Virus record (IMG/VR): IMGVR_UViG_3300030331_004162
Span: 1-57,663 of that record
DNA from: a virus
Lineage: Duplodnaviria > Caudoviricetes
Strand: one strand, 5' to 3'
DNA: 57,663 nt
The notes below the pieces were generated by a model. It searched no databases, was not told where the DNA came from, and saw only the letters and a program-made list of their open reading frames with translations. Positions 4,648 through 36,078 of the stretch are shown piece after piece. Position 1 is the stretch's first letter. Each line of letters opens with the position of its first letter. The position numbers and the translations under genes were made by a program.

Positions 4648-4780
4648 GGGCTCTCGCAACCTCTTTTGGGTAGGACAAGGTTGCACCTACACAGCCTTGT
4701 CCCAGTGGGTTTATTCATTGTCCCACGCCCAACCGGTCTTGGCTGTGGTCGGTTGCAACACCTAGTCTGTGCGTTTTTTG
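4648..4780 (+). ncRNA. candidate structured non-coding RNA
   Basis: Nested stems 4656-61/4751-56, 4666-71/4727-32, 4673-83/4692-4702 (11 bp) and 4705-09/4722-26; no convincing ORF; 3' end uncertain. Confidence 0.45.
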
Positions 4781-7427: not shown

Positions 7428-8117
7428 ATGGCCAAGAACAGATACGCCAATGTTTTGGACACCAAAGCGGCGGCTTTGCCGGAAGCAAAGCGCCAGCAGA
7501 CTAACCGACCCCCTTTGGCAGAGAAGCGTTTGACCCGCAGGCAGGAACTGTTTGTACGTGAGCTTGTAGCGAAGGACGGGCAGATCACCATGCGGGAAGC
7601 GGCCATCAATGCGGGCTACCCTGAGAAGTCTGCTCATGTCCGCGCTTCTGAGCTAACCAACCCCCGCATTTCTCCCCATGTGTGCAGAGCCATTCGCGAA
7701 TACCGGCAGGAGCTTGATCAGAAGTACGGCGTGGAATACCAGCGCCACCTGAGAGATCTGCAAATCATTCGGGATGCCGCCCTCGAGCAAGGCGCGTTCA
7801 GTGCGGCAGTGCAGGCTGAGTACCGCAGGGGTCAGGCGCAGGGTGACATCTACGTTAGCAAGACAGAGATTCGTCACGGCACGATTGAGCAAATGAGCAA
7901 AGAAGAGGTCATGAAAGCTTTGAACGAACTGAAGCAGACCTATGCCCCTTTGACCCATGACGCGGGGGCAGAGGATGCTGGCAATCGAAAACGCGCTCGA
8001 GAGCGTTTAGCGGAGGAAACAGATGGACATACTGGACGGGAAGCCGAAGACCAAGAAACAGAGGGAGGCGAGCTTCTGGCAGTCTCTGAAAAAAGCGATG
8101 AGGGACAACTTTCCTGA
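7428..8117 (+). CDS. terS: terminase small subunit
   Basis: LTRRQELFVRELV...EAAINAGYPEKSAHVRASEL, an HTH typical of TerS; GGAGG SD. Confidence 0.85.
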   Translation: MAKNRYANVLDTKAAALPEAKRQQTNRPPLAEKRLTRRQELFVRELVAKDGQITMREAAINAGYPEKSAHVRASELTNPRISPHVCRAIREYRQELDQKYGVEYQRHLRDLQIIRDAALEQGAFSAAVQAEYRRGQAQGDIYVSKTEIRHGTIEQMSKEEVMKALNELKQTYAPLTHDAGAEDAGNRKRARERLAEETDGHTGREAEDQETEGGELLAVSEKSDEGQLS

Positions 8118-9636: not shown

Positions 9637-9682
9637 ATGCCTATAGAAATTTTTAAAAAAACTGTTGTCCTGCACGTCTCTG

Positions 9683-9735
9683 TATGCGATAGTGGCTATG
9701 CGGCAATCCTGCCGCGTTTGCTTTGGAGAGCAATT
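9683..9735 (+). promoter_or_regulatory. cassette 2 leader
   Basis: TATGCGATAGT, hairpin GCGGCA-atcc-TGCCGC, CTTTGGAG SD. Confidence 0.7.
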
Positions 9736-10869
9736 ATGCAAAATTCAATTGAAAACTCAGACCAGACCCTGACCCGTTTGCTTCAACAGGTACAGGATCA
9801 AGCCGCCAGATCGCAGGACTTTCTGGCCCCGACGAATCAGCTTCAGCTTGTGACCGGTGATGCGGGTGACGGTAGCAAAGTCAGTCAGATCATCATGGAG
9901 CAGACAGGGGGTGCACCTACCCAAATTCTGTCCGCTAATGATGTGGCGTTTGATCAGATCAGCCAGCGGGCCGGTATTGATGTCCGGACTGCCCGCCGCC
10001 TTCAGCAGGATTATTCCGCTGAATTTGATGGCCTGATCAATGCTATCTGGCAGAAGGAACCGGCGGTGCGAATGATTCGTTCATTCCAGCACACTGATAA
10101 CGCGGGCACGGCTCGAGCGTTTGTCAGCGATAAGTTTAAGACATTCGACAATGTGCACCTGTTGAATTCGGCCCTGCCCGAGCTAATGGAAAGTGACGCC
10201 CAGTGGCAAGTGGTAAACGGCACGGTGACTGATAAGCGCCTGTACCTCCGCCTGAAGTCTGCGGTCATTACGGGTGAGGGCGCGGCGGTGGGCGACATCA
10301 TGGCGCTTGGCATTGGCATGAGTAACAGCGAGGTCGGGTGCGGTAGCGTCAACGTGTATCAAATGCACTGGACGCTGGCCTGCTTAAATGGATTGCAGAC
10401 CGAAAAGCGTACCCGCAAGTCTCACATCACTGGCGCTCGAGGCGATGCTGATACGTGGGGCCTACTGACGGACGAAGCAAAGGATGCGGATAATCATGCG
10501 CTGGCGCTTCAAATGCGGGACGTTACCGCGGCGTATGCCAGCCGTGAGTCATTTGACGAAGTGCTGGAAAAGATGAAAACCGCGCACGATGACAAAGTCG
10601 AGGGCTCGCCGCAGTCGGCAGTTGAGGCCATGGGCAAAGTGCTGGCGCTTACTAAAAAGGATACCGCCAGTTTAATGGACGGCCTGCTGGCCACTATCGG
10701 GCAGTCAGGTTATGCCGGTCAGCCGGTTACCCGTGCCACTATGGTAAACGCGGTTACAGCGGTAGCGCATACCGCGGACGCTGACAGTGTGGACGATTGG
10801 CAAAAGCTTGGCGGGCGCGTGTTGGATCTGCCCCGCTCCGATTGGCAACGTGTGGCGATGGCGGCTTAA
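9736..10869 (+). CDS. DUF932-like phage/plasmid protein
   Basis: SDKFKTFDN...RLYLR...NSEVGCGSV...LACLNG...H pattern; start reassigned to the ATG after the SD. Confidence 0.7.
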   Translation: MQNSIENSDQTLTRLLQQVQDQAARSQDFLAPTNQLQLVTGDAGDGSKVSQIIMEQTGGAPTQILSANDVAFDQISQRAGIDVRTARRLQQDYSAEFDGLINAIWQKEPAVRMIRSFQHTDNAGTARAFVSDKFKTFDNVHLLNSALPELMESDAQWQVVNGTVTDKRLYLRLKSAVITGEGAAVGDIMALGIGMSNSEVGCGSVNVYQMHWTLACLNGLQTEKRTRKSHITGARGDADTWGLLTDEAKDADNHALALQMRDVTAAYASRESFDEVLEKMKTAHDDKVEGSPQSAVEAMGKVLALTKKDTASLMDGLLATIGQSGYAGQPVTRATMVNAVTAVAHTADADSVDDWQKLGGRVLDLPRSDWQRVAMAA

Positions 10870-13633: not shown

Positions 13634-13661
13634 ACCCCGCCCTCGAGGCGGGGTTTTTTTT
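13634..13661 (+). terminator. intrinsic terminator (CCCCGC family)
   Basis: ACCCCGCC-ctcga-GGCGGGG followed by T8. Confidence 0.9.
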
Positions 13662-13829
13662 GCCTGCCGTCTCCGACACTTTTTGCTTCCAGACCGGGCG
13701 ACCGTTCGGCAGCAAAACCTGGCGTCTCATACCCCCGCGAGCCTAGTGTTTACGCCATTCTGTTTCGCCGTTTTTGCACTAATCGCGAAAACGCATTCTC
13801 GAAACCACTTCAACTTGCACACGTAACAA

Positions 13830-14045
13830 CTGGCGCGGGGTCCGCGCCCCGAGCACCGCCCGAAACGTACCGCGCCCCCTGCCGCCGGTCCCATGGGCCG
13901 CGGCCCGCGGGCCGTTGCCGTTGTCATGACGCCCCGCGCCCCGTGGGCCGCGGTCCGCGGGACCCAGTCCCCGATCGCGTCAGCGGGCCGTGGGCCGCGA
14001 TTTTTGGCGAATTTTCCGCGAAACGCGCCCGCGCCTAAGCAAGCG
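13830..14045. repeat. very GC-rich non-coding tract of short CCG(C/T)GG-based repeats upstream of terL
   Basis: CCATGGGCCGCGGCCCGCGGGCCG, CCGTGGGCCGCGGTCCGCGGG and GCGGGCCGTGGGCCGCG, followed by A/T tracts. Confidence 0.55.
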
Positions 14046-14096
14046 GCAACTAATGCCATGTTTCTCACGAACAACAGAACAGAAAAACGATATCGA

Positions 14097-14112
14097 TGTT
14101 CCACGTGGAACA
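14097..14112. promoter_or_regulatory. parS: parS centromere-like site 1 (intergenic)
   Basis: Perfect palindrome TGTTCCACGTGGAACA. Confidence 0.85.
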
Positions 14113-14291
14113 ATTTTTTCGGAAAAAACCCGTAAGCCCCGAGCCGAGGTCCCTGAAACGTGTTACGGTTCAAAAAAAACGCGTACAGGAGTCCCAGAGC
14201 TTCAAAAATTTTGCAAAAAATTGAGAGCTACCGGATCGCATATATGTTTATAATTGAAGTGAGTACTTACTAACCCCGAGAGCTAGTGTTT

Positions 14292-15770
14292 ATGCGGAGT
14301 AATGGTTCTAGTTTTGAGTCTTTAGAGGAAGCGGAAGAGAAGATTCTGAAGCTCGAATACCGGCTGGCGCAGATTGAGCAGGTTGAGTCGTGTCAGAGAG
14401 ACTATTTGAGCTTTGTCCGGACGATGTGGCCCGAGTTTATTGCGGGTCGGCACCACAAGATCATGGCCGAGAAGCTTGAGCGAGTGGCCAGTGGGGAGTT
14501 GAAGCGGTTGATCATCAACATGCCGCCGCGTCACACGAAGTCTGAGTTTGCGAGTTTCCTGTTTCCGGCTTGGATGATTGGTAAAAACCCTGCAATGAAG
14601 ATTATTCAGGCTACGCACACCACGGAACTTGCGGTCAACTTTGGCCGGAAGATCAAGAATCTGCTGGAGAGAGATGATTATCTGGAGATTTTCCCTGATG
14701 CGGCGCTTTCTGCTGACTCGAAGGCGTCCGGTAGGTGGGACACGGCCCGTGGTGGTATGTATTACGGCGTAGGTGTGGGGTCAAACTTGGCGGGACGTGG
14801 TGGTGATTTGATCATTATTGACGATCCGCACTCTGAGCAGACGGCGATGTCGCTGAGTGGCTTTGATGATGCATGGGATTGGTACACAGGTGGTCCTCGA
14901 CAGCGTTTGCAACCGGGCGGGGCCATCATTGTGGTGATGACGAGGTGGTCAGAGAAGGATTTGACGGGTCAATTGATCCGGGCACAGGGTCGCGATGAGT
15001 TAGCGGACACTTGGGAAGTCATTGAGTTCCCGATGGAGATGCCTTCTGGGCAACCTTTGTGGCCGGAGTTCTGGTCATTTGAGGAAATGCAGGCGGTAAA
15101 GGGATCAATTCCCTTGCCCAAGTGGAATGCCCAGTACCAGCAGAACCCTACTGGTGATGAAAACGCGATTATCAAGCGCGAGTGGTGGAATGTGTGGGAT
15201 AAACAGCAGATTCCGCAGTTGCAATACGTGATTCAGAGCTATGACACGGCTTTTTCCAAGAATACGCGGGCGGATTACAGTGCGATTACGACTTGGGGCG
15301 TGTTTTATCCTGAAGAAGGCACGGTTGCGGGGCTAATTTTGCTGGATGCAAAGAAAGGGCGCTGGGATTTCCCTGAATTGAAGCAAGTTGCGATGGAATC
15401 CTACAAATTTTGGGAGCCTGAGACGGTAATTATTGAGGCAAAGGCGAGTGGTATGCCTTTGACCCACGAACTACGGAACATGGGCATCCCTGTGGTAAAC
15501 TTTACGCCGAGTCGCGGTAACGATAAGGTATCGCGAGTACACAGTGTTTCTCCGCTTTTTGAAAGCGGGATGATTTGGGCACCGGATGAGTCTTGGGCGC
15601 ACGATGTGATAGAAGAGTGTGCGGCGTTCCCTAATGGGGAGTATGATGACTTGGTAGACAGCACCACGCAGGCGTTGATGCGATACCGACAGGGTAACTT
15701 TGTTCAGTTGCCATCAGATTATTGGGAAGATGAGAGTGCGAATCTTCGGCCAATGCAATATTACGGGTAG
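14292..15770 (+). CDS. terL: terminase large subunit
   Basis: MPPRHTKS Walker A variant, IIIDDPH Walker B, SYDTA and DDLVDSTTQAL nuclease motifs. Confidence 0.95.
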   Translation: MRSNGSSFESLEEAEEKILKLEYRLAQIEQVESCQRDYLSFVRTMWPEFIAGRHHKIMAEKLERVASGELKRLIINMPPRHTKSEFASFLFPAWMIGKNPAMKIIQATHTTELAVNFGRKIKNLLERDDYLEIFPDAALSADSKASGRWDTARGGMYYGVGVGSNLAGRGGDLIIIDDPHSEQTAMSLSGFDDAWDWYTGGPRQRLQPGGAIIVVMTRWSEKDLTGQLIRAQGRDELADTWEVIEFPMEMPSGQPLWPEFWSFEEMQAVKGSIPLPKWNAQYQQNPTGDENAIIKREWWNVWDKQQIPQLQYVIQSYDTAFSKNTRADYSAITTWGVFYPEEGTVAGLILLDAKKGRWDFPELKQVAMESYKFWEPETVIIEAKASGMPLTHELRNMGIPVVNFTPSRGNDKVSRVHSVSPLFESGMIWAPDESWAHDVIEECAAFPNGEYDDLVDSTTQALMRYRQGNFVQLPSDYWEDESANLRPMQYYG

Positions 15771-15775
15771 ATCTT

Positions 15776-17284
15776 ATGGGAAATAAAATGTTGATGTCCG
15801 GCATCGGTTCATATGCTCCTCAATACATGAGCAACGGGGGTGGAGTACCGCTTGTTGGCGGCTCAAACCCTGCCGGATTAAATTTTTCCGGGGCTTTTAG
15901 TTACGACGCCTTGACGGAAGAACAAAAACAACAGCTTGCCAATATGGGCATTGGTTACAACGTAACGGGAGCCACGGGCACCGGACGGGGTGGACAGGGT
16001 GGCGCTGGAGGGGCCAAAGCCGGACAAGGTCAGACGCCACTGCCTTCTTATTTGTACTTTGACGGCAACATGGTTGTACCGTACCGCGAAACCAATAACC
16101 GTCAGATGATAGACACGTTACGTCTTTTAGGTCTGGTAAGCGATGAGGACTACGCGTGGTTTAGTAATTATTTTAAAAATGAGCGCGGAGATGCTACGTG
16201 GCTCAATTCTTATTTTAATCGTCCGGATGAGAACTTTCAGAGAGAACGGTTTTTTGAACGCACAGACTTTGACGATGAGACAGACGCGAGATGGAACCGG
16301 ATATTTGATTCGATAGATGCGGCCAGCAAAACGGGCGGCTTTGCGACAGACGATAATTTCTTGATGCAGTATACCGACCAAGGGATTCGCTCTACTTTTG
16401 GCGCGGTGCGTCCTATGGGCGGTACGCCAAGGTCGCCCTTTTTTACGACTAGTGATGTGCTTGTTGATTCTTCGGAACAACCTAACCTTTACACTTACAA
16501 CGATGGTCAGTTTGATCCCATGACCCAACCGGCCCCGGTAAATCCATACCAGACTCCGGCGTCTGATTTAGCTTATCCGTATGTCCCACCCTCTGGCCCA
16601 ACGCCCACATTGACTGCTACGACGGCTGACGCACAGCCGGTCAACTTGGAGGATACACAGGGCCGTGGAGATATTTACACGCCTACTGCCACGCCTACTC
16701 CCGTAACGCAAACTACTACTCCTGTCACTACCGCCCCTACCCCTACCCCGACGCCCTTTGTTGACGAAGAGCTTATGGCATTGGATGACGAGCAGAAAAG
16801 TGTGTACGACGTTGTTAAATTTCTTGTGGAAAGCCGTCGGGGCGATCAGCTAACAAACGCTGAAGCCAACCAAATTTTGACGGCTTATGATGCAACAGGA
16901 CGAGATTCAACAAAGCTTCAGAGTCTAATTGCTGGGGATGTCAGCGGACAGGGCAATATTGACGTAGATCCCGGTGACGTGGCTTTGGCTCAAGGGCAAG
17001 CAATTTCGTCCACACCTTTTGTGCCTACCGGTGGGACAGGATTAACTTCTACACAAGCCGCACTCAAAGCCATGGAAGAGCGTAAAGCCGCCGAAGCACA
17101 GGCGGGGCAGTTCGCTATGGGTGGCATTGTGGATTTGACCGGCGGCATGGACATGTCGATGACCGGCCAAGGGTTAGAGACTTTCCTGAATCCAGAACGA
17201 TCTAAAGCGACCCTTCGCCGTAACCTCGCGAAAACCGCACCACGGCCCACGATGCAAACGGGCATCATGCCCATGGCCCGATAA
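15776..17284 (+). CDS. hypothetical low-complexity protein (possible virion protein)
   Basis: 502 aa; Pro/Thr-rich linker; YMSNGG and FAMGG motifs; lies between terL and portal. Confidence 0.7.
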   Translation: MGNKMLMSGIGSYAPQYMSNGGGVPLVGGSNPAGLNFSGAFSYDALTEEQKQQLANMGIGYNVTGATGTGRGGQGGAGGAKAGQGQTPLPSYLYFDGNMVVPYRETNNRQMIDTLRLLGLVSDEDYAWFSNYFKNERGDATWLNSYFNRPDENFQRERFFERTDFDDETDARWNRIFDSIDAASKTGGFATDDNFLMQYTDQGIRSTFGAVRPMGGTPRSPFFTTSDVLVDSSEQPNLYTYNDGQFDPMTQPAPVNPYQTPASDLAYPYVPPSGPTPTLTATTADAQPVNLEDTQGRGDIYTPTATPTPVTQTTTPVTTAPTPTPTPFVDEELMALDDEQKSVYDVVKFLVESRRGDQLTNAEANQILTAYDATGRDSTKLQSLIAGDVSGQGNIDVDPGDVALAQGQAISSTPFVPTGGTGLTSTQAALKAMEERKAAEAQAGQFAMGGIVDLTGGMDMSMTGQGLETFLNPERSKATLRRNLAKTAPRPTMQTGIMPMAR

Positions 17285-17285
17285 C

Positions 17286-17798
17286 ATGTCAGATGGAATA
17301 ATGGGGTTAATTAATGAAGCGCGGGCTTACGCAGAATCAAAGTACGCGGCACATTTAGGAATGGACGACGACGCTATTGCTTGGGCCAATTCTGTTGGAG
17401 AAAAATACGGAAAAGCCGGTCAGTTTGATGGAACAGCCGATGCCGCAAGACATATAGCTTTAGGGTGGCTAACTACGCAGACACCGGACCCAGAGCGCGC
17501 TTTTAAATCAATTCAAAACCGTGAAGATTTTGGACTAGATCGTATTTCTGAATTTTTTAATCCCGAACATCGTGGTCGTCGGATGGATTTGCATAACAAC
17601 CGGTTAGGTTACGAGCTTCCGGCTAAGACAAGAGACGAAGCTGAAAAACTCATTAATCAGCTTATTCTTTCTAAAGAAGCTGAATATATGACCCCCGAAG
17701 AAAGCCGCAAAATGAGAGGCTATGCTATGGGCGGTGAAGCGCGATATGATATAAGACGCGGCGTGGGCGCATTTGCCCCATACACTAGGAGTGCCTGA
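17286..17798 (+). CDS. hypothetical protein
   Basis: 170 aa; DAARH...MDLHNNRLG motif; C-terminal YAMGG. Confidence 0.7.
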   Translation: MSDGIMGLINEARAYAESKYAAHLGMDDDAIAWANSVGEKYGKAGQFDGTADAARHIALGWLTTQTPDPERAFKSIQNREDFGLDRISEFFNPEHRGRRMDLHNNRLGYELPAKTRDEAEKLINQLILSKEAEYMTPEESRKMRGYAMGGEARYDIRRGVGAFAPYTRSA

Positions 17799-20233
17799 TG
17801 GCCAATGGTGACGATAAAGCACAGCTATCTTCGTTGATGGATAGCACGGCCCCTCGTTCTGAATTAGAAGATGCCGATCTTGAGTTGGACATTGAGATAG
17901 CCGCACCCGGTACTTTTGTAGGTAAAGTCAACGAGGTTTTGCCGGAAGGCATAGAGATTGAGGCCGAAGAAGATGGTGGAGTTACTGTCGATTTTGATCC
18001 TATGGCCATGGTTGGCCTTGATGACGGCGATTTCTATCGCAACTTGGCAGAGGAGTTGGACGATAGAGAGCTTGGCCGCCTATCTTCAGAGCTTTTAGGC
18101 GAGTTTGAAGCTAACAAATCTTCGCGTTCCGAGTGGGAGGACGCGTATTCCAAGGGCTTGGAGCTTTTGGGGTACAATTACGAAGAGCGCACAATGCCCT
18201 TTAGAGGGGCCACGGGCGTAACTCACCCATTGCTTGCAGAAGCGGCCACACAGTTTCAGGCACAGGCATTTAATGAGCTTTTGCCGCCGTCAGGGCCTGT
18301 TCGCACCCAGATTATTGGTGAAAAGACGCGAGAAAACGAAGCGCAGGCGTTTCGTGTAAAAGAGTTTATGAACTACTACATCACCAACGTGATGGAGGAG
18401 TACACGCCTGAGTTTGATCAGATGCTGTTTTACCTGCCGCTGGCCGGTTCTACTTTCAAGAAAGTTTATTATGACGAGGCGATAGATCGCGCTGTCAGCA
18501 AGTTTGTCCCCGCAGAGGACATTGTGGTGCCGTATGGTGCCAGTGATTTAGATTCTTGTGAAAACATCACTCAGGTCGTGAAGATGACTTTAAATGATCT
18601 GCGTATCCGGCAGGTCATGGGTTTTTACAGGGACATCCCCGTTATTCCGGCGCAAGGCGCAGAAGACGAGATTACGGGTGAGATCAATAAACTAGATGGG
18701 GTAGAACCCAGCAATCTGGATTATGACTGCACTTTGCTTGAGTGCCACGTCAATCTGGACCTAGAAGGTTTTGAAGACACGGGGGAAGATGGCGAGCCAA
18801 CGGGCATCAAAGTTCCGTATATCGTCACGATAAGCGAAGATAGCGGCCAAGTTCTGTCTATTCGACGCAATTTTAAAGAAGAAGACGACGTAAAGAAAAA
18901 GATCCAGTATTTCGTGCACTACAAGTTTTTGCCGGGTTTTGGATTTTACGGCCTTGGTTTAATCCATACCATTGGTGGCCTGTCTCGCACAGCCACTGCG
19001 GCCTTACGTCAGTTGATTGATGCGGGTACGTTGTCGAATCTACCGGCAGGTTTCAAGGCCCGTGGCCTACGGGTCAGGGACGATGAAGAACCGCTACAGC
19101 CCGGTGAGTTTAGGGATGTAGATGCGCCCGGTGGGGCTATCAGGGACTCTTTAATGCCGTTGCCGTTCAAGGGTCCAGACACCACGTTGTTCCAGCTTCT
19201 GGGCTTTGTGGTAGATGCGGGTCGTCGGTTCGCGACGATTACGGACATGAAAGTGGGCGATGGTAACCAGCAGGCGGCTGTCGGAACGACGGTAGCGTTG
19301 TTGGAACAGGGCTCACGGGTCATGAGTGCGGTGCATAAACGTCTGCACTATGGGATGCGTCAGGAGTTCAAGCTTCTCGCGCGGGTAATGTCCGAGTATT
19401 TGCCGCAGGAATACCCTTATGCGGTGATGGGGGGTGATCGTGCGATCATGCAACGGGACTTTGATGACCGGATAGACGTTGTTCCGGTATCAAACCCCAA
19501 CTCTTTCTCGCAGGCACAGCGTATTTCACTGGCGCAAGCCCAGCTACAGATGGCCATGCAGGCCCCTCAAATGCATGATATGCATGAAGCATATCGTCGT
19601 ATGTATGAGGCTTTGGGGGTCAATGACGTAGACAAAATATTGATAGCGCCGTCCTCAGACGATCCAATACCAAAAGATCCCGCACAGGAAAACATGGATG
19701 TTCTTGATGGTGTTCAGTTGAAGGCCTTTGAGGGTCAGGACCATGATGCACACATTATGGCGCATTTAATTTTTTCGACTTCTCCTACATTACAGGCGAT
19801 GCCTACTGCCGCGATAGCTCTTCAAAAGCACATCATTGAACATGTGAAATTGAAATGTCAGGAAATGGCTACGGCACAAATGTTGCAACGAACCGGTGGC
19901 CAACCTTTGAACGCGGACATGGAGCTTGAGTTAGAAGCCATGGTCGCTCAAATCAATGCACAAGAGTTTGCCAAGCTGAAACAGCTTACAGCACAGATCA
20001 CGGGCCAGAACCAAGGTGACCCGCTGGTGCAACTCAAGCAACAGGAGCTTCAGTTGGATGCTCAGAAGCAACAGGCAGAGTTGCAGATGGATCAGGCAGA
20101 GTTGCAGATGGATCAACAACGTATGGCTAACAAGCAGACTGAGTTCCAGCAACGACTTGCTAGTCAGGAACGACAGACGCAGGCTAGAATCGACGCGGCT
20201 TTACAACGTGAATTGTTAAAACGAGGTAATTGA
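17798..20233 (+). CDS. portal protein
   Basis: 811 aa downstream of terL; HPLLAEAATQFQA, LAGSTFKKVYYD, GFYGLGLIH; Gln-rich coiled-coil C-terminus like a P22-type barrel. Confidence 0.9.
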   Translation: MANGDDKAQLSSLMDSTAPRSELEDADLELDIEIAAPGTFVGKVNEVLPEGIEIEAEEDGGVTVDFDPMAMVGLDDGDFYRNLAEELDDRELGRLSSELLGEFEANKSSRSEWEDAYSKGLELLGYNYEERTMPFRGATGVTHPLLAEAATQFQAQAFNELLPPSGPVRTQIIGEKTRENEAQAFRVKEFMNYYITNVMEEYTPEFDQMLFYLPLAGSTFKKVYYDEAIDRAVSKFVPAEDIVVPYGASDLDSCENITQVVKMTLNDLRIRQVMGFYRDIPVIPAQGAEDEITGEINKLDGVEPSNLDYDCTLLECHVNLDLEGFEDTGEDGEPTGIKVPYIVTISEDSGQVLSIRRNFKEEDDVKKKIQYFVHYKFLPGFGFYGLGLIHTIGGLSRTATAALRQLIDAGTLSNLPAGFKARGLRVRDDEEPLQPGEFRDVDAPGGAIRDSLMPLPFKGPDTTLFQLLGFVVDAGRRFATITDMKVGDGNQQAAVGTTVALLEQGSRVMSAVHKRLHYGMRQEFKLLARVMSEYLPQEYPYAVMGGDRAIMQRDFDDRIDVVPVSNPNSFSQAQRISLAQAQLQMAMQAPQMHDMHEAYRRMYEALGVNDVDKILIAPSSDDPIPKDPAQENMDVLDGVQLKAFEGQDHDAHIMAHLIFSTSPTLQAMPTAAIALQKHIIEHVKLKCQEMATAQMLQRTGGQPLNADMELELEAMVAQINAQEFAKLKQLTAQITGQNQGDPLVQLKQQELQLDAQKQQAELQMDQAELQMDQQRMANKQTEFQQRLASQERQTQARIDAALQRELLKRGN

Positions 20234-20234
20234 T

Positions 20235-20435
20235 ATGAGAGTTAAAGTAGACGGCGCACCGCCCAAGAACCCCCCAAACCCTGTAGCCAAGGCCGATATT
20301 CAAGGTCAAGGCTCTATTCCTTATGCTGTAGCAAAAGAGGAAAAGACTCCGGATATTACGTTTGCCAAGGTAACTACAGGCAAAAAGCGTGGTATGGGGG
20401 CGGCTTTACGTGGCTCACGCTTCACTAACGCTTAA
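20235..20435 (+). CDS. small conserved protein downstream of portal
   Basis: C-terminal RGMGAALRG motif; GAGG SD. Confidence 0.65.
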   Translation: MRVKVDGAPPKNPPNPVAKADIQGQGSIPYAVAKEEKTPDITFAKVTTGKKRGMGAALRGSRFTNA

Positions 20436-20449
20436 TTTAGGGGGTTTTG

Positions 20450-20851
20450 ATGCTACAAGCACTGATAGGTCCTGTTACCGGTTTACTGGATAAGTTTATA
20501 CCGGACGCTGACGAAAAGGCGAAGCTTGCACATGAAATTGCAACAATGTCCGAGCGTCATGCTCAAGAGCTTGCAAAAGGTCAGATTGAGATTAACAAGG
20601 CCGAAGCGGCACACAAGTCTATGTTTGTCGCGGGCTGGCGACCATTTGTTGGGTGGACTTGCGGTGTTGCTCTGGCTTGGCACTTTGTCGGCCAGCCTAT
20701 TGCTGTTTTTGTCATCACATTTGCTGGTGTGGAAGCCCCTCCGTTACCTGTGTTTGAAATGGAGAGCCTTCTTACAGTTTTGCTTGGGATGTTGGGCCTC
20801 GGTGGTCTACGGACCTTTGAGAAGACCAAACAGGTAGCTCGCGAAAAATGA
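20450..20851 (+). CDS. holin (3TM/GTA-type holin family)
   Basis: LIGPVTGLLDKFIPD...WRPFVGWTCG...LLGMLGLGGLRTFEK. Confidence 0.85.
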   Translation: MLQALIGPVTGLLDKFIPDADEKAKLAHEIATMSERHAQELAKGQIEINKAEAAHKSMFVAGWRPFVGWTCGVALAWHFVGQPIAVFVITFAGVEAPPLPVFEMESLLTVLLGMLGLGGLRTFEKTKQVAREK

Positions 20852-21018
20852 AATGTTATGACTGCCAAACTGAACTGATCTGGGGCGGCGATCACGATAA
20901 TGATCGTGACGATGAGCATTTAATCGAAACTAATCTTTCTTGTCCCGAATGCGGTGCGTTTGTAGTGGTTTGGTGGGGAAAGAAAGAGGACGAAAATCTT
21001 GACGCCAGAACAGCTTAA
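20848..21018 (+). CDS. small zinc-ribbon protein (56 aa)
   Basis: Own translation MKCYDCQTELIWGGDHD...NLSCPECGA; ATGA overlap. Confidence 0.7.
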   Translation: MKCYDCQTELIWGGDHDNDRDDEHLIETNLSCPECGAFVVVWWGKKEDENLDARTA

Positions 21019-21193
21019 CGCGTGGCGTATCATCCCGCGGATACTCATGTTTGCCATGATTGCCATGACATACCGGACGGTTGAGTGGTTTATGTCTTTG
21101 CCTGACCCCAATCCCGAGCAAGCGGCACTGGTGTCTGTGATGACGGGCGCTCTGACCGGCTCATTTGGTTTGTTTCTTGGGAAAAAAGAGTGA
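20999..21193 (+). CDS. small two-TM membrane protein (lysis cassette)
   Basis: WRIIPRI followed by two hydrophobic helices; TTG start with GAGG SD. Confidence 0.7.
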   Translation: MTPEQLNAWRIIPRILMFAMIAMTYRTVEWFMSLPDPNPEQAALVSVMTGALTGSFGLFLGKKE

Positions 21194-21540
21194 GCGAGTT
21201 TAAATACTTCAAGCTGTCTGATTTTAACTGTCAGGAGACAGGTGAGAACGAGATGGACTTGGACTTTATCAGGAGTCTTGACGAGCTAAGAGAAGCCTGC
21301 GGCTTTCCGTTCATAGTTAACTCTGGATTCAGGTCTGCCAGTCATAGCGTAGAGGCAAAGAAGTCAAAGCCGGGAATGCACAACTCGGGAGTTGCTGTTG
21401 ACATATCAGTAGCAGACGGTGTGCAAAGACTGGCAGTTGTGCAAAAAGCTATAGAGCATGGATTTACAGGCATTGGCGTAGCCAAGACATTTGTTCATGT
21501 AGACAAAAGAACCTCTACTCCGGTGATGTGGACATATTAG
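21190..21540 (+). CDS. endolysin, peptidase M15A family
   Basis: SGFRS, HNSGVAVDI and FVHVD zinc-ligand pattern. Confidence 0.88.
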   Translation: MSEFKYFKLSDFNCQETGENEMDLDFIRSLDELREACGFPFIVNSGFRSASHSVEAKKSKPGMHNSGVAVDISVADGVQRLAVVQKAIEHGFTGIGVAKTFVHVDKRTSTPVMWTY

Positions 21541-21596
21541 TTGCTCCTTTTAGACTGTCGTGGTATATAGATAAGACTTTCTGAGATGGAGCGCAT

Positions 21597-21794
21597 GTGG
21601 ACTCATTACACCTAGTTCAATTTATACAAAAGGTTATAAAGGAACGTCGCACACAAGTCTTAGAATTGTTGGAAAACAATAGCGTAAAGTCGATGGAGCA
21701 GTACCAAAACCTTATGGGGGAGCTATCGGCTTTGAATCATGTAGCACAGGAACTCTCGGGCCTGCTAGAAAAACAGGAGCAACTAAATGACTGA
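21597..21794 (+). CDS. conserved hypothetical protein upstream of GroES
   Basis: 65-aa helical ORF with GGAG SD. Confidence 0.7.
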   Translation: MDSLHLVQFIQKVIKERRTQVLELLENNSVKSMEQYQNLMGELSALNHVAQELSGLLEKQEQLND

Positions 21795-22233
21795 TCTAGC
21801 TGAAGAAATTGACCTAGACGCCGCCGCAGAAGGCGTCAAATCCCTTTACAAAGCTCCACAGCCCAAGGTACTTGACCCCGAGGCCATGGACAAAAGTCTT
21901 TTGGAGCGTATGCCACAGCCCACCGGCTGGCGCATGTTAATCCTCCCATACCGCGGTAAAGAAACCACGGAAGGCGGTATTTATATTCCCAATCAAGTCT
22001 TGAACGACACTCAGCTTCAGACTGTCGTGGGATATGTCGTTAAGCAAGGCCCCCTTTGCTACAAAGACGCTGAAAAGTTCCCTGACGGCCCATGGTGCAC
22101 CGAAAAACAGTGGGTAATCTTTGCTCGTTATGCTGGTTCTCGGTTCCGTATTGACGGCGGGGAGTGCAGGATTTTGAATGATGACGAAATCTTAGCGACT
22201 ATTGACGATCCAGAAGACATTCTTAGTTTGTAA
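21787..22233 (+). CDS. groES: phage co-chaperonin GroES
   Basis: PTGWRMLILP, TEGGIYIP, VIFARYAGS, ILNDDEILATI. Confidence 0.9.
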   Translation: MTDLAEEIDLDAAAEGVKSLYKAPQPKVLDPEAMDKSLLERMPQPTGWRMLILPYRGKETTEGGIYIPNQVLNDTQLQTVVGYVVKQGPLCYKDAEKFPDGPWCTEKQWVIFARYAGSRFRIDGGECRILNDDEILATIDDPEDILSL

Positions 22234-22245
22234 AGGAGAAGCACC

Positions 22246-23166
22246 ATGGGAGAACCTGCTGAAGAACCTCAATTTGAATTAGATGTGGGAGATGCTGAAG
22301 CCACAGAGGTGGAGATTGAGCAACCTGAAGAAGATGTTCCACGTGGAACAACTGATTCGGAAGAACCTGTGATTGAGGTAGAGCAAGAAGCCTCGCCTGA
22401 CGACGAAATGGCCGAGTACAGCGAATCTGTACAGAAACGCATTAATCGTTTGACTAAAAAAATGCGCGAAGCCGAGCGTCGTGAAGAAGAGGCCCTGAAG
22501 TTTGCACAAAATGTGCAGGCCGAATCAGAACAAATCAAACAGAGGATGCAAAACCTAGATCAAGGTTTTATGACCGAATACGGTCAGCGCATCCAACTCC
22601 AACAACAGCAGGCTGAAGCGGCCCTCAAACGCGCTGTTGAGTTAGGTGATGCAGAAGGAACCGTAGTCGCTCAGAAAGAACTGACGGATATCACCATTGC
22701 GGCTAACCAATATGCTCAAGCTCAGAGACGTGCTGAAGCTAATCAACAGGTTCCGCAACAACAGGCTCCACAAGCCGCACCGCAACAACAAGCCCCACAA
22801 CAGCCTCAAAGGCCTGATCCCAAAGCAGAGCAGTGGGCGGAAAAAAACTCTTGGTTTGGTCAAGACGAGGCAATGACTTTTGCCGCCTTTGGAATTCACA
22901 AAAAATTAGTGGAAGACGAGGGGTTTGACCCGCAAGGGGATGACTACTACAATGAATTGGACTCTAGAATTAAGCGGGAGTTCCCGCATAAATTTGGAGA
23001 GGAGCAATCCACTGGCCGCAAGCCCGCTCAGAATGTTGCCGGTGTCTCACGCTCCACCAAAACTGGGCGCAGTGGTAAAAGGGTCAAACTCTCCCCGACC
23101 CAAGTAACAATTGCTAAAAAGTTGGGAGTGCCGCTTGAAGAATACGCGAAATACGTAAAGGAGTAA
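22246..23166 (+). CDS. capsid scaffolding protein (putative)
   Basis: Acidic N-terminus, coiled coil, C-terminal IAKKLGVPLEEYAK; upstream of the MCP. Confidence 0.7.
   Translation: MGEPAEEPQFELDVGDAEATEVEIEQPEEDVPRGTTDSEEPVIEVEQEASPDDEMAEYSESVQKRINRLTKKMREAERREEEALKFAQNVQAESEQIKQRMQNLDQGFMTEYGQRIQLQQQQAEAALKRAVELGDAEGTVVAQKELTDITIAANQYAQAQRRAEANQQVPQQQAPQAAPQQQAPQQPQRPDPKAEQWAEKNSWFGQDEAMTFAAFGIHKKLVEDEGFDPQGDDYYNELDSRIKREFPHKFGEEQSTGRKPAQNVAGVSRSTKTGRSGKRVKLSPTQVTIAKKLGVPLEEYAKYVKE
22335..22350. promoter_or_regulatory. parS: parS centromere-like site 2 (inside the scaffold gene, within the DVPRGT codons)
   Basis: Perfect TGTTCCACGTGGAACA. Confidence 0.85.
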
Positions 23167-23170
23167 GACT

Positions 23171-23653
23171 ATGTCCACAGAGAAGAAAGGCTTTGAGGGC
23201 ATTAACCGCTCCTCACGTGAAACAGCGTCAAGGGAGACACAGGGACGGCGTAAGCCTTGGACTCCCCCGTCTATGTTAGACGCCCCGCCCGCACCAGAGG
23301 GCTTTAAACATCGTTGGATACGCGCCGAAGTAAGGGGTTTTGACGACACCAAGAATATTTCGGCAAGGTTGCGAGAAGGCTATGAGCTTGTTCGCCAAGA
23401 TGAGTATCCAGATTTTGAAGCACCGGTAATTGATTCGGGTAAATATGAGGGTGTGTTTGGTGTTGGCGGATTGATGCTCGCTCGTATACCGTTGGAAACA
23501 GTAGAAGAACGCGCTGAGTATTTTGCTCAACGTAACGCGGACCAGATCGAAGCTGTGGAAAGCGATATGATGCGAGAAAACGCTCATCCAACGATGGCAA
23601 TCGGTAAACCCGAACGCCAGAGTCGTGTAACTTTTGGCGGCCCCAAAAAATAG
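23171..23653 (+). CDS. conserved head-module protein
   Basis: PWTPPSMLDAP...HRWIR...REGYELV...GVGGLMLARIP. Confidence 0.75.
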   Translation: MSTEKKGFEGINRSSRETASRETQGRRKPWTPPSMLDAPPAPEGFKHRWIRAEVRGFDDTKNISARLREGYELVRQDEYPDFEAPVIDSGKYEGVFGVGGLMLARIPLETVEERAEYFAQRNADQIEAVESDMMRENAHPTMAIGKPERQSRVTFGGPKK

Positions 23654-23679
23654 GGCCGCACAGAATGGAGAACTAAGTT

Positions 23680-24330
23680 ATGGCAAATCAAGAAACTGCC
23701 TTTGGTCTTCGTCCTGTAGGTCTGGTAGGAAGCGGTGTTAACAGCACCGGAGTTACTCAGTATGAAATTGCTAGTAACAACACTAATGCTATTTTTAACG
23801 GAAGCATCTGTGTTCCCACTGCCGCAGGCGTTATAGACCAAGCTGGAGCTACAAGTGGCGGCACTACGCAAGCCCTTGGCGTTCTGGTAGGGGTTGAATA
23901 TCAAGACGCCACACAAAAGAAACCTGTGTTTCTTAATTACTGGCCCGGATCAGGAAGCGTATCGGTAGATACCAATTTTCCTGTAAAGGCTCTTGTGGCT
24001 GATAACCCTGATCAACTGTTCGTCGTTGCGGCGGATGCATCTCTCACTGACCGAGCTACTGCATTAACGGCTGTTTTTGCTAACGCAAGTCTGGGAACTT
24101 CTGCCCGTACCGGTTCTACCGATACAGGCAAGTCAAATTCTCAGCTTTCTGTAAGCAGTATTGCTGTTACTGCTACGCTACCTTTGCGTATCGTAGGTTT
24201 GGTTGATGATGAAGCTAATCAAGATTACGCTTCAGTAGGGGCACATCTGCTTGTTCGATTGAACGCTCATTTCAACGCTGGCACACGTGGTTTTGCTTCA
24301 CAAACCACTGCCGACTCAACCGGCATTTAA
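23680..24330 (+). CDS. putative capsid decoration/minor capsid protein
   Basis: MANQETAFGLRPV start; small-residue-rich; immediately before the MCP. Confidence 0.65.
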   Translation: MANQETAFGLRPVGLVGSGVNSTGVTQYEIASNNTNAIFNGSICVPTAAGVIDQAGATSGGTTQALGVLVGVEYQDATQKKPVFLNYWPGSGSVSVDTNFPVKALVADNPDQLFVVAADASLTDRATALTAVFANASLGTSARTGSTDTGKSNSQLSVSSIAVTATLPLRIVGLVDDEANQDYASVGAHLLVRLNAHFNAGTRGFASQTTADSTGI

Positions 24331-24343
24331 GGGGGATTAAGTA

Positions 24344-25249
24344 ATGGCTATTTCTCGCGCACAGTTGGCGAAGGAACTTGAGCCGGGGCTTAACGCTCTT
24401 TTCGGACTTGAGTATGATCGCTACGAGCAAGAACACTCTGAAATCTTTGAAGAAGAGACTTCAGATCGTGCTTTTGAAGAAGAAGTAATGCTGTCTGGCT
24501 TCGGCACTGCGCCGGTTAAGTCAGAAGGTGGTGCTATTTCGTTTGATGACGCGCAGGAGACATTTACTGCACGTTATACTCACGAAACGATTGCACTGGC
24601 ATTTTCAATCACCGAAGAGGCGATTGAAGACAACCTGTATGACCGCCTTGCTTCTCGTTACACTCGTGCTTTGGCACGATCCATGTCCCAGACCAAGCAG
24701 ATTAAGGCCGCTTCAATTCTGAACAACGCCTTTAGCACCGGTTCTCCTGTTGGAGATGGTGCCGCTCTCTGCTCTTCGGCTCACCCGTCCCTTTCAGGGA
24801 ACCAGCGTAACTTGCTGTCAACTGCCGCTGACCTCAACGAGACTTCTCTTGAGCAGATGTTGATTGACATTGCCGGTTTCACGGATGAGCGTGGTCTGAA
24901 GATCGCGGTACGTGGTATGAAGTTGATTATTCCTAAAGAACTGCAATTTATTGCGGAAAGAGTAATTAACTCTAACCTAAGAACTGCCACGGCGGACAAC
25001 GACCTAAATGCCATGAAATCCATGGGCATGCTCCCAGATGGGGCGGTAGTTAATCATTTCTTGACCGACACAGATGCGTTCTTCATTAAGACTGACGCAC
25101 CTAACGGTTTTAAAATGTTTAACAGAAGCCCCATCAAGACTGCCATGGAAGGTGACTTTGATACTGGAAACATGCGTTTTAAAGCGCGTGAGCGATACAG
25201 TTTTGGAGTTTCCGATTGGCGTTGTGTTTTTGCCACACCGGGTGCTTAA
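24344..25249 (+). CDS. major capsid protein
   Basis: MAISRAQLAKELEPGLNALFGLEY...KARERYSFGVSDWR; followed by a strong terminator. Confidence 0.9.
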   Translation: MAISRAQLAKELEPGLNALFGLEYDRYEQEHSEIFEEETSDRAFEEEVMLSGFGTAPVKSEGGAISFDDAQETFTARYTHETIALAFSITEEAIEDNLYDRLASRYTRALARSMSQTKQIKAASILNNAFSTGSPVGDGAALCSSAHPSLSGNQRNLLSTAADLNETSLEQMLIDIAGFTDERGLKIAVRGMKLIIPKELQFIAERVINSNLRTATADNDLNAMKSMGMLPDGAVVNHFLTDTDAFFIKTDAPNGFKMFNRSPIKTAMEGDFDTGNMRFKARERYSFGVSDWRCVFATPGA

Positions 25250-25253
25250 AAAC

Positions 25254-25278
25254 AAAGCCGCCTTCGGGCGGCTTTTTT
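25254..25278 (+). terminator. intrinsic terminator after the MCP
   Basis: AAAGCCGCC-TTCG-GGCGGCTTTTTT. Confidence 0.92.
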
Positions 25279-25293
25279 GTTCCACGTGGAACA
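25278..25293. promoter_or_regulatory. parS: parS centromere-like site 3 (intergenic, over the -35 of a putative promoter)
   Basis: Perfect TGTTCCACGTGGAACA; TG-t-TAGTAT at 25298-25306. Confidence 0.85.
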
Positions 25294-33214: not shown

Positions 33215-34645
33215 ATGAAGTTCTTGGGCAAAGACCCCAACATCATTGATGCCTATTACACCGCTACGGCTGAAGGCGCGATTACGGCTGGAAAACCTGT
33301 CATTGTTGAGGCAGATGGTGATGTAGCTCAAGTAGCGTTAGGTGGTTCAGAACTAGGTTCTGCCGCCGTTGTTGATAGCAATAATGTCTCTCAAACTCTA
33401 ATAGCCTATGACTCAAGTGCGGGCAAGGTGGTTATTGCGTACAGAGACAATACAAACGCAAATAAAGGACAAGCCCGAGTAGGCACTGTTTCTGGAAGTT
33501 CAATTACTTTTGGTACAGAGGTTGCTTTTGCTGACGCGCAAACTACCCCTCTGGGCATTTCGTATGATGCGAATGCAGAAAAGGTGGTTATCATTTTTTA
33601 TGACGATGACAACTCAAACTATGGCACGGCTGTTGTCGGCACGATAAGCGGTACGGATATTAGTTTTGGCACAGAGGTTGTTTATAACTCTGCCAACTCA
33701 TACGGCGGAGGCATAGCTTACGACATCAACGCTCAAAAACATTTGATTGCTTACAGAGATAGTGATAATCGCGGCAAGGCCCGCGTGGGCACGGTGTCGG
33801 GGACGAGTATTTCTTTTGGAACTGAGGCGCAGTTTGAGTCAAGTACTTTCTATTACGGCGAAGTAACCTACGACGAAACCGCACAAAAAAGTATTATTTT
33901 CTGGAATAGAGGGTTTGGTAGCGGTCAGGCAGTTGTCGCTACGATTAGCGGCACTGATGTCACTTATGGAAGCATTGCAGAGTTCTCGTCTAGCGCGTTA
34001 GGTTCTGAAGGCCCAGAGGGGGCTTATGATGCAACATCACAAAAAGTAGTTGTTGCTTATGCAGACAACGGTAATTCTGGTTATGGCACTGCTAAAGTCT
34101 GCACTATTAGCGGAACAAGTGTAAGTTTTGGGAGCGCCCAAGTTTACAACTCTACCGCAGAGGCTATGACGGGTCTTGGGGCTGGTGGAGGAAAGCTCGT
34201 TGTGGCGTATTCAATCAACTCAACAAGCAAAGGAAAACTCAACGTAGGAACAGTGTCTGGGACATCCATATCGTGGGATTCCGCTGTAGAGTTTGAGGAC
34301 GCACAAGTTGAAAATACTGCTGTTGCATACGATTCCACAGCAGGCCGATTTGTCATTGCTTATCGAGATCAGGGAAATTCTAGCGCCGGTACATCAATAG
34401 TTTTTGCGGCTGTTACCGTAAACCTCACCTCAGAAAACTACATAGGCATCGCCGCCGATACTTACTCTGACAATGAAGACTCAACGATTGGCATAGTCGG
34501 CTGCATAGATCGTAATCAAACCAGCCTGACAGCAGGCCAGCAATATTTTGTTCAGACTGACGGCACACTTAGCACCACAGCAGGATCGCCGTCTGTTCTG
34601 GCTGGCACTGCCATATCCGCTACTGAACTGGTGGTGAAAGAATGA
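33215..34645 (+). CDS. beta-propeller-like repeat protein 1 (putative receptor-binding)
   Basis: ~48-aa repeats of the form YD..aqKVVIAY.D.gNs.yGta.VGTVSGTSISFG. Confidence 0.75.
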   Translation: MKFLGKDPNIIDAYYTATAEGAITAGKPVIVEADGDVAQVALGGSELGSAAVVDSNNVSQTLIAYDSSAGKVVIAYRDNTNANKGQARVGTVSGSSITFGTEVAFADAQTTPLGISYDANAEKVVIIFYDDDNSNYGTAVVGTISGTDISFGTEVVYNSANSYGGGIAYDINAQKHLIAYRDSDNRGKARVGTVSGTSISFGTEAQFESSTFYYGEVTYDETAQKSIIFWNRGFGSGQAVVATISGTDVTYGSIAEFSSSALGSEGPEGAYDATSQKVVVAYADNGNSGYGTAKVCTISGTSVSFGSAQVYNSTAEAMTGLGAGGGKLVVAYSINSTSKGKLNVGTVSGTSISWDSAVEFEDAQVENTAVAYDSTAGRFVIAYRDQGNSSAGTSIVFAAVTVNLTSENYIGIAADTYSDNEDSTIGIVGCIDRNQTSLTAGQQYFVQTDGTLSTTAGSPSVLAGTAISATELVVKE

Positions 34646-36078
34646 AGGTCATAGGTGACAGTTTGCCAAGAAGGTTCAAGGCCAAGGCCAGCGGTTCGAT
34701 TACTGCGGGTAAGCCTGTAATCGTTGAAGCTGACGGTGATGTAGCTCAAGTCGCTACATCGGCGGCGGCAGTTGGCACACCTGCCGTTTTTGAAAATTCT
34801 GAACTCGCTGATCCCTTTGTTGTTTACGACTCTAACGCTCAAAAGGTCGTGATAGCTTATAGAGACAGGGGAAATTCTGATTACGGGACCGCAATTGTTG
34901 GCACTGTCAGCGATACATCCATTAGTTTTGGTAGTTCCGCAGTATTTGAAAGCGCGACTTCCACTTATATGTATGCCGCCTATGATGCCAATGCTCAAAA
35001 AGTGGTTATCGTCTATAGCGACGGCGGAAATTCTCAGTACGGCACAGCAGTTGTTGGAACAGTAAGCGGGACTTCGATTAGCTTTGGAACAGCGGTAGTT
35101 TTTGAAAGTGCGTTTATTGACTTTCCTTCAGTGGCCTACGATTCCAATGCTCAAAAAGTGGTCATAGCTTTTCGTGACGTTGGAAATTCCAACTACGGAA
35201 CCGCCATAGTGGGAACAGTTAGTGGTACGTCGATTAGTTTTGGTAGTGCCGCAGTATTTGAAAGCGCAAATACTAATGACGTTGAAGCCGTTTACGATGC
35301 TAGCGCCCAAAAAGTGGTCATTTTGTACAGAGATAATGGCAACTCTGACTATGGAACCGGCATCGTAGGGACAGTGAGTGGGACATCTATCAGTTTTGGC
35401 AGTGCGGCTGTATTTGAAAGCGCGAAGAGTGAGTATATGTCTGCCGTTTATGATTCTAACGCTCAAAAAATTGTAGTAGCTTACAGAGACGGTGGAAACT
35501 CTAACTACGGGACCGCTGTTGTTGGGACGGTAAGCGGGACTTCAATCACTTTTGGCAGTGCAACTGTATTTGAAAGTGCAGACATTCCCTTTCTCTCAGC
35601 CGTTTACGACTCTAAAAACCAAAAAGTGTTTATAGCCTATGAAGACACAGGAAATTCTAGCTATGGCACTTTCGTTTCTGGAACAGTCAGTGGAAATTCT
35701 ATTAGTTTTGAATCACCAGCGGTATTTGACAGCACGGACTCTGACAAAATCGCGGCCGCTTATGATGCTAACGCCGAAAGGGTTGTCATCGCTTATAGAG
35801 ACGGTGGAAATTCTGAGTACGGAACCGCTGTTGTAGTTCGCCCCGCTAGCACAAATCTCACCTCAGAAAATTTTATTGGTATTGCAGAGTACGCGGCGTC
35901 TGACACGGAAACAGCCACCGTGCTAATCAAGGGCGGCGTCAGCACCACACAGTCCAGCCTGACGGCAGGTCAGACATACTTTGTGCAAGGTGATGGCACG
36001 ATAGCAACGTCAGCGGATAGCCCTAGCGTTACTGCTGGCACGGCTGTTACATCCACCAAACTGATAGTGAAGGGCTGA
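34642..36078 (+). CDS. beta-propeller-like repeat protein 2
   Basis: Same repeats, highly homogeneous; shared N- and C-terminal caps. Confidence 0.75.
   Translation: MKVIGDSLPRRFKAKASGSITAGKPVIVEADGDVAQVATSAAAVGTPAVFENSELADPFVVYDSNAQKVVIAYRDRGNSDYGTAIVGTVSDTSISFGSSAVFESATSTYMYAAYDANAQKVVIVYSDGGNSQYGTAVVGTVSGTSISFGTAVVFESAFIDFPSVAYDSNAQKVVIAFRDVGNSNYGTAIVGTVSGTSISFGSAAVFESANTNDVEAVYDASAQKVVILYRDNGNSDYGTGIVGTVSGTSISFGSAAVFESAKSEYMSAVYDSNAQKIVVAYRDGGNSNYGTAVVGTVSGTSITFGSATVFESADIPFLSAVYDSKNQKVFIAYEDTGNSSYGTFVSGTVSGNSISFESPAVFDSTDSDKIAAAYDANAERVVIAYRDGGNSEYGTAVVVRPASTNLTSENFIGIAEYAASDTETATVLIKGGVSTTQSSLTAGQTYFVQGDGTIATSADSPSVTAGTAVTSTKLIVKG

Follow-up and report, generated by a model that had tools for sequence, protein, structure and literature searches.

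Results

A 16-bp parS-type palindrome occurs three times in a phage genome

We analysed the whole IMG/VR virus record IMGVR_UViG_3300030331_004162, a stretch of 57,663 nt that we refer to as the window, and observed that it contains three exact copies of the 16-bp palindrome TGTTCCACGTGGAACA, a word of the bacterial chromosomal centromere parS. The copies lie at 14097-14112, 22335-22350 and 25278-25293 (sites 1, 2 and 3; no strand assigned). Site 1 is non-coding and sits 189 nt 5' of the start of the large terminase gene (TerL; 14286-15770, + strand; phrog_38, E 2e-105; Terminase_6C), the first gene 3' of it. It belongs to a 630-nt non-coding region downstream of a strong terminator, a control region (13657-14285, + strand) that divides the early and middle genes from the packaging and late genes. 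This region contains a GC-rich repeat block (~13830-14000), a CATGTTTCTCACGAACA element (14057-14076), site 1, an AT hairpin and promoter-like hexamers (14221-14254). Site 2 is read in frame as DVPRGT within the acidic, hypervariable N-terminal linker of a 306-amino-acid (aa) open reading frame (ORF) of the head module (22246-23166, + strand; phrog_28737); from its position and composition we infer that this ORF is scaffold-like. Site 3 lies at the T-run end of the terminator (25254-25275) of the major capsid gene (24344-25249, + strand; phrog_371, PF25209), which it abuts, and the promoter-like region of the next gene lies 3' of it.

The original prediction for this DNA had reported the palindrome at these three places, one of them coding, and all three copies proved exact. 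No further copy with three or fewer mismatches is present in the window, and in 100 dinucleotide-preserving shuffles such matches averaged 0.33 with a maximum of 2, so that none of the 100 reached three. No other palindrome of at least 12 nt repeats within the window. Homology among the three sites is confined to the 16 bases, with unrelated flanks. Their clustering within 11.2 kb is weak evidence when taken alone (p ~ 0.11 for random points on a 57.7-kb circle). We also observed four extra copies of the half-site TGTTCCAC (25719, 28906, 36369 and 56938), all on the minus strand, where ~0.67 are expected per strand. Two simple accounts of the word were rejected: as an RNA hairpin or terminator it would form only a weak 6-pair stem, it also occurs within a coding region, and the sequence is conserved rather than the pairing potential; CACGTG as a restriction site is neither avoided nor enriched, with 11 copies against ~14 expected in the window.

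All 14 specified positions of TGTTNCACGTGNAACA, the consensus for the 16-bp inverted repeat parS of chromosomal ParB/Spo0J, are matched by the window sites. As predicted, the word is the Pseudomonas variant: it is identical to parS2 and parS3 of P. aeruginosa, which the available text of PMC4368675 gives as the best-bound sites of that organism's ParB. According to the same source, a single site of this type together with parAB stabilises a plasmid. P. aeruginosa ParB on parS3 and parS4 also represses neighbouring promoters (PMC5521831, available text).

Recognisable partition genes are absent

The prediction that no par gene accompanies the sites also held. A Pfam search of the 87 window ORFs (E <= 0.01) returned no ParB, ParA, KorB, integrase or recombinase family. 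Six-frame searches with ParB_N gave no match in the window and four relatives (0/5) or in five genomes of a sister clade described below (0/5); as a positive control, the same search matched 11 of 14 known genomes. The negative relatives amount to nine records, seven of them at least 88% complete, one 63% complete and one a fragment. Six-frame searches with HTH_ParB gave nothing above cut-off in five genomes, and a 12.1-bit sub-threshold match in the relative G003 was dismissed, as it falls within a 1328-aa ORF. A complete ParABS system, with ParA and ParB genes in cis, is not present in the window. The arrangement is instead that of phi29 and Nf, with several host-type parS sites in a phage that has neither ParB nor a lysogeny module; we call the window phage virulent from its gene content alone.

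The genome had been taken as nearly complete, in agreement with the 99% completeness estimated by CheckV. The two ends of the window each hold part of one UvrD-type helicase gene (56881-57663 and 1-222), and the record is therefore a complete genome in circularly permuted form. The TerL protein shares 54-63% identity with that of 023Pt_psg01, HTVC027P and HTVC023P (Pelagibacter phages) and DSL-LC04, which identifies the window phage as an HTVC023P-like marine podophage. A megablast of window positions 13-27 kb against cultured phages found no near-identical relative, and a look-up of sequencing runs returned matches in marine, estuary and seawater metagenomes.

The word is widespread in bacterial chromosomes and in viruses

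The exact word was found in at least 138 stretches of species-representative bacterial genomes. The matches listed include Bacteroidota, Gamma- and Alphaproteobacteria, Verrucomicrobiota, Planctomycetota, Acidobacteriota, Nitrospirota, Myxococcota, Spirochaetota, Actinomycetota, Bacillota and Patescibacteria. Since the word occurs in so many phyla, it does not indicate a gammaproteobacterial host, and the earlier hint in that direction is not supported. In one sampled bacterial class, 77 of 201 genomes carried the exact word, mostly in one or two copies (control, 0 matches). The five bacterial genomes that we checked have clusters of two to six sites within a few kb, some of which mix GGAACA and GAAACA forms, and marine genomes with clustered words include Porticoccus, Algibacter, Marinicaulis and Methylophaga. 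Single phages mix the two forms in the same way. A flank preference for A,A on the 5' side and T,T on the 3' side is common to 163 bacterial sites and 110 viral sites from outside the window's clade.

In IMG/VR, the word was present in at least 121 stretches (L006-L126) compared to 3 for a reversed control, an enrichment of at least 40-fold; 12 of the stretches listed fall in the window's clade and 109 outside it. Among the first 80 stretches listed, 42 contigs are at least 20 kb long, and ParB_N was detected in two of these and not in the other 40. Of the 42, 15 are at least 90% complete, and ParB_N was detected in one of these, leaving 14 without it. Because so few word-bearing contigs encode ParB_N, viral genomes seem to carry orphan chromosomal-type parS commonly.

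Sites are perfect or absent among close relatives

A portal search of IMG/VR identified 460 relatives, of which 79 loci (742 kb) were kept as the window's clade. Seventeen of these have at least one exact copy (26 copies in all), three have only the one-mismatch form CGTAGAACA, and one has the other canonical palindrome, TGTTTCACGTGAAACA. Counted by form, there are 26 exact sites, one GAAACA site, one TTTC/GAAA site and three with a G11A mismatch. Apart from the symmetric canonical variant, no decayed site with two mismatches was found in the 79 loci.

The three positions differ in how often they are occupied. The site 1 position is covered in eight loci of the clade and occupied in four; carriers are G002, G003, L197, L194 and L189, the last of which has two tandem copies 28 bp apart. 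In G001, site 1 has been removed by a clean ~16-bp indel with homologous flanks on both sides. Site 2 is covered in 46 loci and present in seven, among them L166 with flanks that are 42% different; L165 additionally has the GAAACA form there, L131 has lost the site through a 15-nt deletion, and distant relatives are hypervariable at this place. Site 3 is present in 17 of 25 covered loci (15 exact, two with one mismatch). It is intact and shifted by an insertion in L159 and L136, and in eight loci it is replaced by a different terminator region. The positions turn over as well: G003 is without sites 2 and 3 and instead has one site 241 nt upstream of TerL and one ~920 nt upstream of the small terminase gene (TerS).

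Where flanks can be aligned, the word is perfect even at 42-58% flank difference (L166, L197, L189). Differences within the motif numbered 2/208, 1/96 and 0/48, compared to flank rates of 0.17, 0.16 and 0.36, figures that are descriptive only because they are conditioned on the motif being found. The G11A form was observed at site 3 in L134 and L157 and in a coding copy in L156 (~4660-4690), where it is followed by a 12-nt tandem duplication of the right arm.

A sister clade keeps parS upstream of the terminase genes

We next turned to a sister clade, using as query the TerL of G005, a fragment whose portal is 69% identical to that of the window and which has TGTTTCACGTGAAACA 109 nt upstream of TerL. 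Among 80 further loci (751 kb), 59 contain a total of 81 sites that fit the consensus exactly, compared to a chance expectation of ~0.006. Seventy-three loci include at least 350 nt of sequence upstream of TerL, and in 50 of them a site lies within 700 nt upstream of the gene, mostly at -67 to -188. Four loci carry a site at -1094, immediately 5' of TerS, where a fifth has a copy with one mismatch; in the four, as in G003, the TerS-upstream site replaces or adds to the one upstream of TerL.

The forms found were 54 TTTC/GAAA, 22 TTCC/GGAA and five hybrid, with just two more sites that are one mismatch off. Natural variation thus falls at positions 5 and 12, the degenerate positions of the consensus. 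In 21 loci, a TTTC/GAAA and a TTCC/GGAA site form a tandem pair 24 bp apart, in one order seven times and in the other 14 times. The sites are part of a conserved non-coding module that also contains an element resembling CATGTTTCTCACAAATA, a hairpin and a promoter-like element of the form TTAACTGTC...GCATATAT, and this module recurs with parS upstream of TerL or TerS. Lineages differ in the order of parS relative to the other elements, and in some loci the module is present but parS is not. In G005 (L222, ~17480-17560, reverse strand), parS and a TATAAT box 5' of TerL have three direct repeats of ATAGGCGTTTGG between them.

Every genome of either clade that is at least 95% complete (8/8) holds one to three sites: three in the window, two in G001, three in G002, two in G003, one in G253, two in G254, one in G255 and three in G256. 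Cultured relatives are more mixed. HTVC027P, which infects Pelagibacter HTCC1062, has a one-mismatch site in an intergenic position near TerS (MN698241.1, 16412-16427), the Pelagibacter phage HTVC023P has an intergenic one (MN698239.1, 29137-29152), and CRP-810, a phage of a CHUG Roseobacter, has one within a 6-kb structural gene (OR671924.1, 24250-24265). No site within two mismatches was found in 023Pt_psg01, DSL-LC04, MinM2 or CRP-901.

Other features of the control region and the genome

The repeat block at 13830-14000, upstream of site 1, consists of GGGCCGYGG-like direct and inverted repeats, including a 17-nt family in five copies and 28-nt inverted arms. Similar GC-rich repeats precede parS in G002, G003, L197 and L189, and the block could be an origin or a packaging element. 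The element at 14057-14076 follows the pattern CATGTTTCTCAC(G/A)AA(C/T)A, which is found 5' of parS in both clades (also in L394, L412, L417, L438 and L449) and is retained even in loci without parS. It reads TTGACA in L417 and may be the -35 box of a promoter at the early/late boundary.

Almost all window genes are on the + strand. We identified genes for replication (family A DNA polymerase, primase, SNF2 helicase), for structure and packaging (small and large terminase, portal, major capsid, SU10-type adaptors) and for lysis (a holin with three transmembrane segments and an M15 endolysin); no tRNA genes were found in the window. TerS is encoded at 7428-8117 (+ strand; phrog_51, PF03592). 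A 76-aa ORF at 2743-2973 (+ strand) resembles CopG-like ribbon-helix-helix proteins (PF07878, 25.3 bits, just below the cut-off of 26) and is the sole recognisable small DNA-binding candidate for a phage-encoded binder. A 410-aa ORF at 9637-10869 is conserved in G001-G003, all of which bear parS, and went undetected in 023Pt_psg01 and DSL-LC04, which have none. We considered this ORF, the largest clade-specific uncharacterised one, as a hidden binder and saw nothing that would indicate DNA binding: language-model features alone liken it to DUF932, without a relative in the PDB. Three tandem ORFs of ~480 aa (33215-34645, 34642-36078 and 36080-37537) match a single ORF of G002 at 40-45% identity; they look like tandem paralogues and probably encode tail or receptor-binding proteins.

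Discussion

Judged from their sequence, the palindromes are genuine chromosomal-type parS sites that are kept by selection in an HTVC023P-like clade without ParB or ParA. That selection keeps them is seen across dozens of relatives. We consider it probable that the three copies in the window are loading sites for the host's chromosomal ParB, which is the most likely binder because the consensus is matched in full, natural variation is restricted to its two degenerate positions, bacterial chromosomes carry comparable clusters and no ParB-like gene is present. The sites would act as position-flexible loading sites, not as operators of fixed geometry, and favour the largest non-coding region, which heads the packaging and late module. 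Of the hijack of host chromosome segregation that was originally proposed, the part concerning host-type, selectively kept parS without par genes stands, and binding of ParB and its effect are what we infer.

ParB dimers bind parS, close as CTP clamps and slide outwards. On the phage genome, host ParB dimers would load at the 16-mers in the same way and slide outwards as closed clamps, coating the packaging, head and lysis part of the DNA (~14-25 kb in the window). If ParB does bind, the leading though still tentative purpose would be tethering or partition of the phage genome together with the host origin region. A genome that has not replicated, or that develops slowly, could then be inherited, giving a carrier state or lytic deferment that would be a non-sporulating counterpart of phi29. 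A more doubtful purpose would be to have ParB dampen the neighbouring late, lysis and packaging genes, and somewhat less probable again would be titration of ParB away from the host origin. Something else, such as recruitment of SMC, is the least probable of these.

Several points weigh against host ParB as the binder. The sites are dispensable in some relatives, as 023Pt_psg01, DSL-LC04, MinM2 and CRP-901 are without any within two mismatches, and three sister-clade fragments (48-56% complete) that cover the region upstream of TerL have no site. The comparison of motif with flank is biased upward, being conditioned on the motif. Binding is predicted from sequence, and the host is presumed to have ParB and to use this word. 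The strong preference for positions upstream of TerL or TerS could instead reflect a cis-acting role, specific to the phage, in packaging or in late transcription. Finally, many ORFs are uncharacterised, and the CopG-like ORF co-occurs with the sites.

The last of these points leads to an unlikely alternative, in which a phage protein outside the Pfam-recognised ParB families, such as the CopG-like protein (2743-2973) or the product of another small ORF, binds the palindromes to regulate the late and packaging module, and the palindromes resemble parS through mimicry or by chance. In phage control regions, a conserved palindrome is usually the operator of a protein that the phage encodes; site 1 stands at the early/late boundary and site 3 between a terminator and a promoter-like stretch, and the CopG-like ORF and several uncharacterised ORFs are shared by G001-G003, all with parS, and were not detected in 023Pt_psg01 or DSL-LC04, which have none. 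However, a match at 14 of 14 consensus positions with variation at positions 5 and 12 would be a remarkable coincidence for an unrelated protein, and the six-frame ParB_N and HTH_ParB searches were negative. The geometry relative to promoter-like elements is not fixed as it would be for an operator, since the distance to TerL ranges from 67 to 189 nt, the order of elements varies, site 2 is intragenic and two of the sites lie in or after head genes. The enrichment of at least 40-fold extends across unrelated viral contigs, mostly without ParB, and therefore points to a common host factor. This factor could in turn be a host protein other than ParB that reads a CACGTG-centred palindrome, which we regard as very improbable: the agreement with bacterial chromosomal parS extends over the whole 16-bp word, the variant forms and the preference for A/T in the flanks, and CACGTG itself is not enriched in the window.

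The location of the sites suggests another role, that of a pac or other terminase-related cis element read by the small terminase. The commonest position is indeed directly 5' of TerL (50 of the 73 sister-clade loci that cover it) or of TerS (four loci and G003), and the near-consensus site of HTVC027P is also near its TerS gene. A pac element would be expected once per genome at the packaging genes, whereas site 2 is 8 kb and site 3 11 kb downstream of site 1, in the head module, relatives have one to three sites at differing places, and extra copies occur in a head gene and after the capsid gene (in the window and close relatives) and in the 6-kb structural gene of CRP-810. Several pac sites in one genome would be harmful, some loci retain the rest of the control region without the site, and the identity with parS would be left unexplained; we thus give this role very little weight. 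We think it just as improbable that the sites have no function and are hitch-hiking scraps of a host origin region or products of recombination. Presence among relatives is patchy, and homology in L164, L128 and L171 starts exactly at the edge of site 1, as such an origin might predict. The sites nevertheless share 16 bases only, are perfect or absent while flanks differ by up to 58%, occupy several independent positions, form tandem pairs of both variants, and are found at least once in each of the eight near-complete genomes.

Loading of host ParB on phage DNA would not be a new idea. Phage phi29 already has five host-type parS sites and exploits host Spo0J for entrapment in the spore, and Nf is similar (available text of PMC2731898, cited in the available text of PMC9437464). 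Like phi29 and Nf, the window phage, judged by its gene content, appears as a lytic phage with several host-chromosome parS and no ParB/Spo0J of its own. In phi29, entrapment of the genome in the spore goes together with Spo0A boxes, through which the lytic cycle is switched off (PMC2731898, available text), whereas the phages described here are marine HTVC023P-like podophages whose sites prefer the head of the packaging module. Cultured phages related to them grow on SAR11 and Roseobacter bacteria. To our knowledge these are not spore formers, and since the probable marine hosts are unlikely to sporulate, the purpose must differ from that in phi29.

Bacterial chromosomal ParABS is related by the word itself, the same 16 bp as P. 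aeruginosa parS2 and parS3 (PMC4368675, available text), and by the clusters of two to six sites in a few kb, the mixed GGAACA and GAAACA forms and the A/T flanks. Unlike the chromosomal system, the window phage has neither a parAB operon in cis nor a chromosomal origin context, and its three perfect copies in 57.7 kb compare with mostly one or two per bacterial genome of several Mb. The plasmid prophages P1 (ParAB-parS) and N15 (SopAB-sopC) have ParA and ParB genes of their own, along with private centromere sequences. They share with the window phage a cis-acting centromere on phage DNA, but the latter encodes neither protein and uses the chromosomal consensus. 'Lytic deferment' has been described for lytic phages that read the state of the host through CtrA boxes (PMC9437464, available text). 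Such boxes, like the Spo0A boxes of phi29, are sites for a host DNA-binding protein on a lytic phage; they are transcription-factor operators at promoters, whereas parS is a clamp-loading site whose place relative to promoters is variable here.

In the literature that we searched, we came across no marine or Gram-negative lytic phage described as having orphan host-type parS. The main text of a paper on 80 uncultivated HTVC023P-type genomes mentions neither parS nor ParB (PMC9599517), and neither appears as a whole word in a Sargasso virome preprint. Orphan host parS on phage DNA has its precedent in phi29, and the comparative support for it here is unusually strong.

ParABS has been viewed as machinery of chromosomes and plasmids, with phi29 as the only worked example of its borrowing by a lytic phage, for spore entrapment. 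Our data suggest the same trick in an abundant group of marine phages whose hosts probably do not sporulate. We propose, as a rather speculative extension, that an abundant and widespread family of marine lytic podophages ties the fate of its genome to the chromosome cycle or nucleotide state of the host through ParB-CTP clamps loaded at orphan parS where the packaging and late module begins, and that centromere borrowing by phages without any partition gene is a pervasive strategy overlooked since phi29. Such phages would have a carrier state or lytic deferment based on parS in ocean bacteria that do not sporulate. The fate in question could be inheritance by daughter cells, the timing of late, lysis and packaging genes, or subcellular position. 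The broad form of this proposal is supported by the enrichment of the word in IMG/VR and by the lack of ParB in 14 of 15 complete parS-bearing viral genomes. HTVC027P with Pelagibacter HTCC1062 and CRP-810 with its CHUG Roseobacter host are cultured systems with near-consensus sites, in which the idea is directly testable. If host ParB does load on these genomes, ParB-CTP clamp biology would gain a new client, orphan parS would become a simple sequence marker for virome surveys, and there would be a molecular handle on the persistence and the timing of lysis of 'lytic' phages in slow-growing ocean bacteria.

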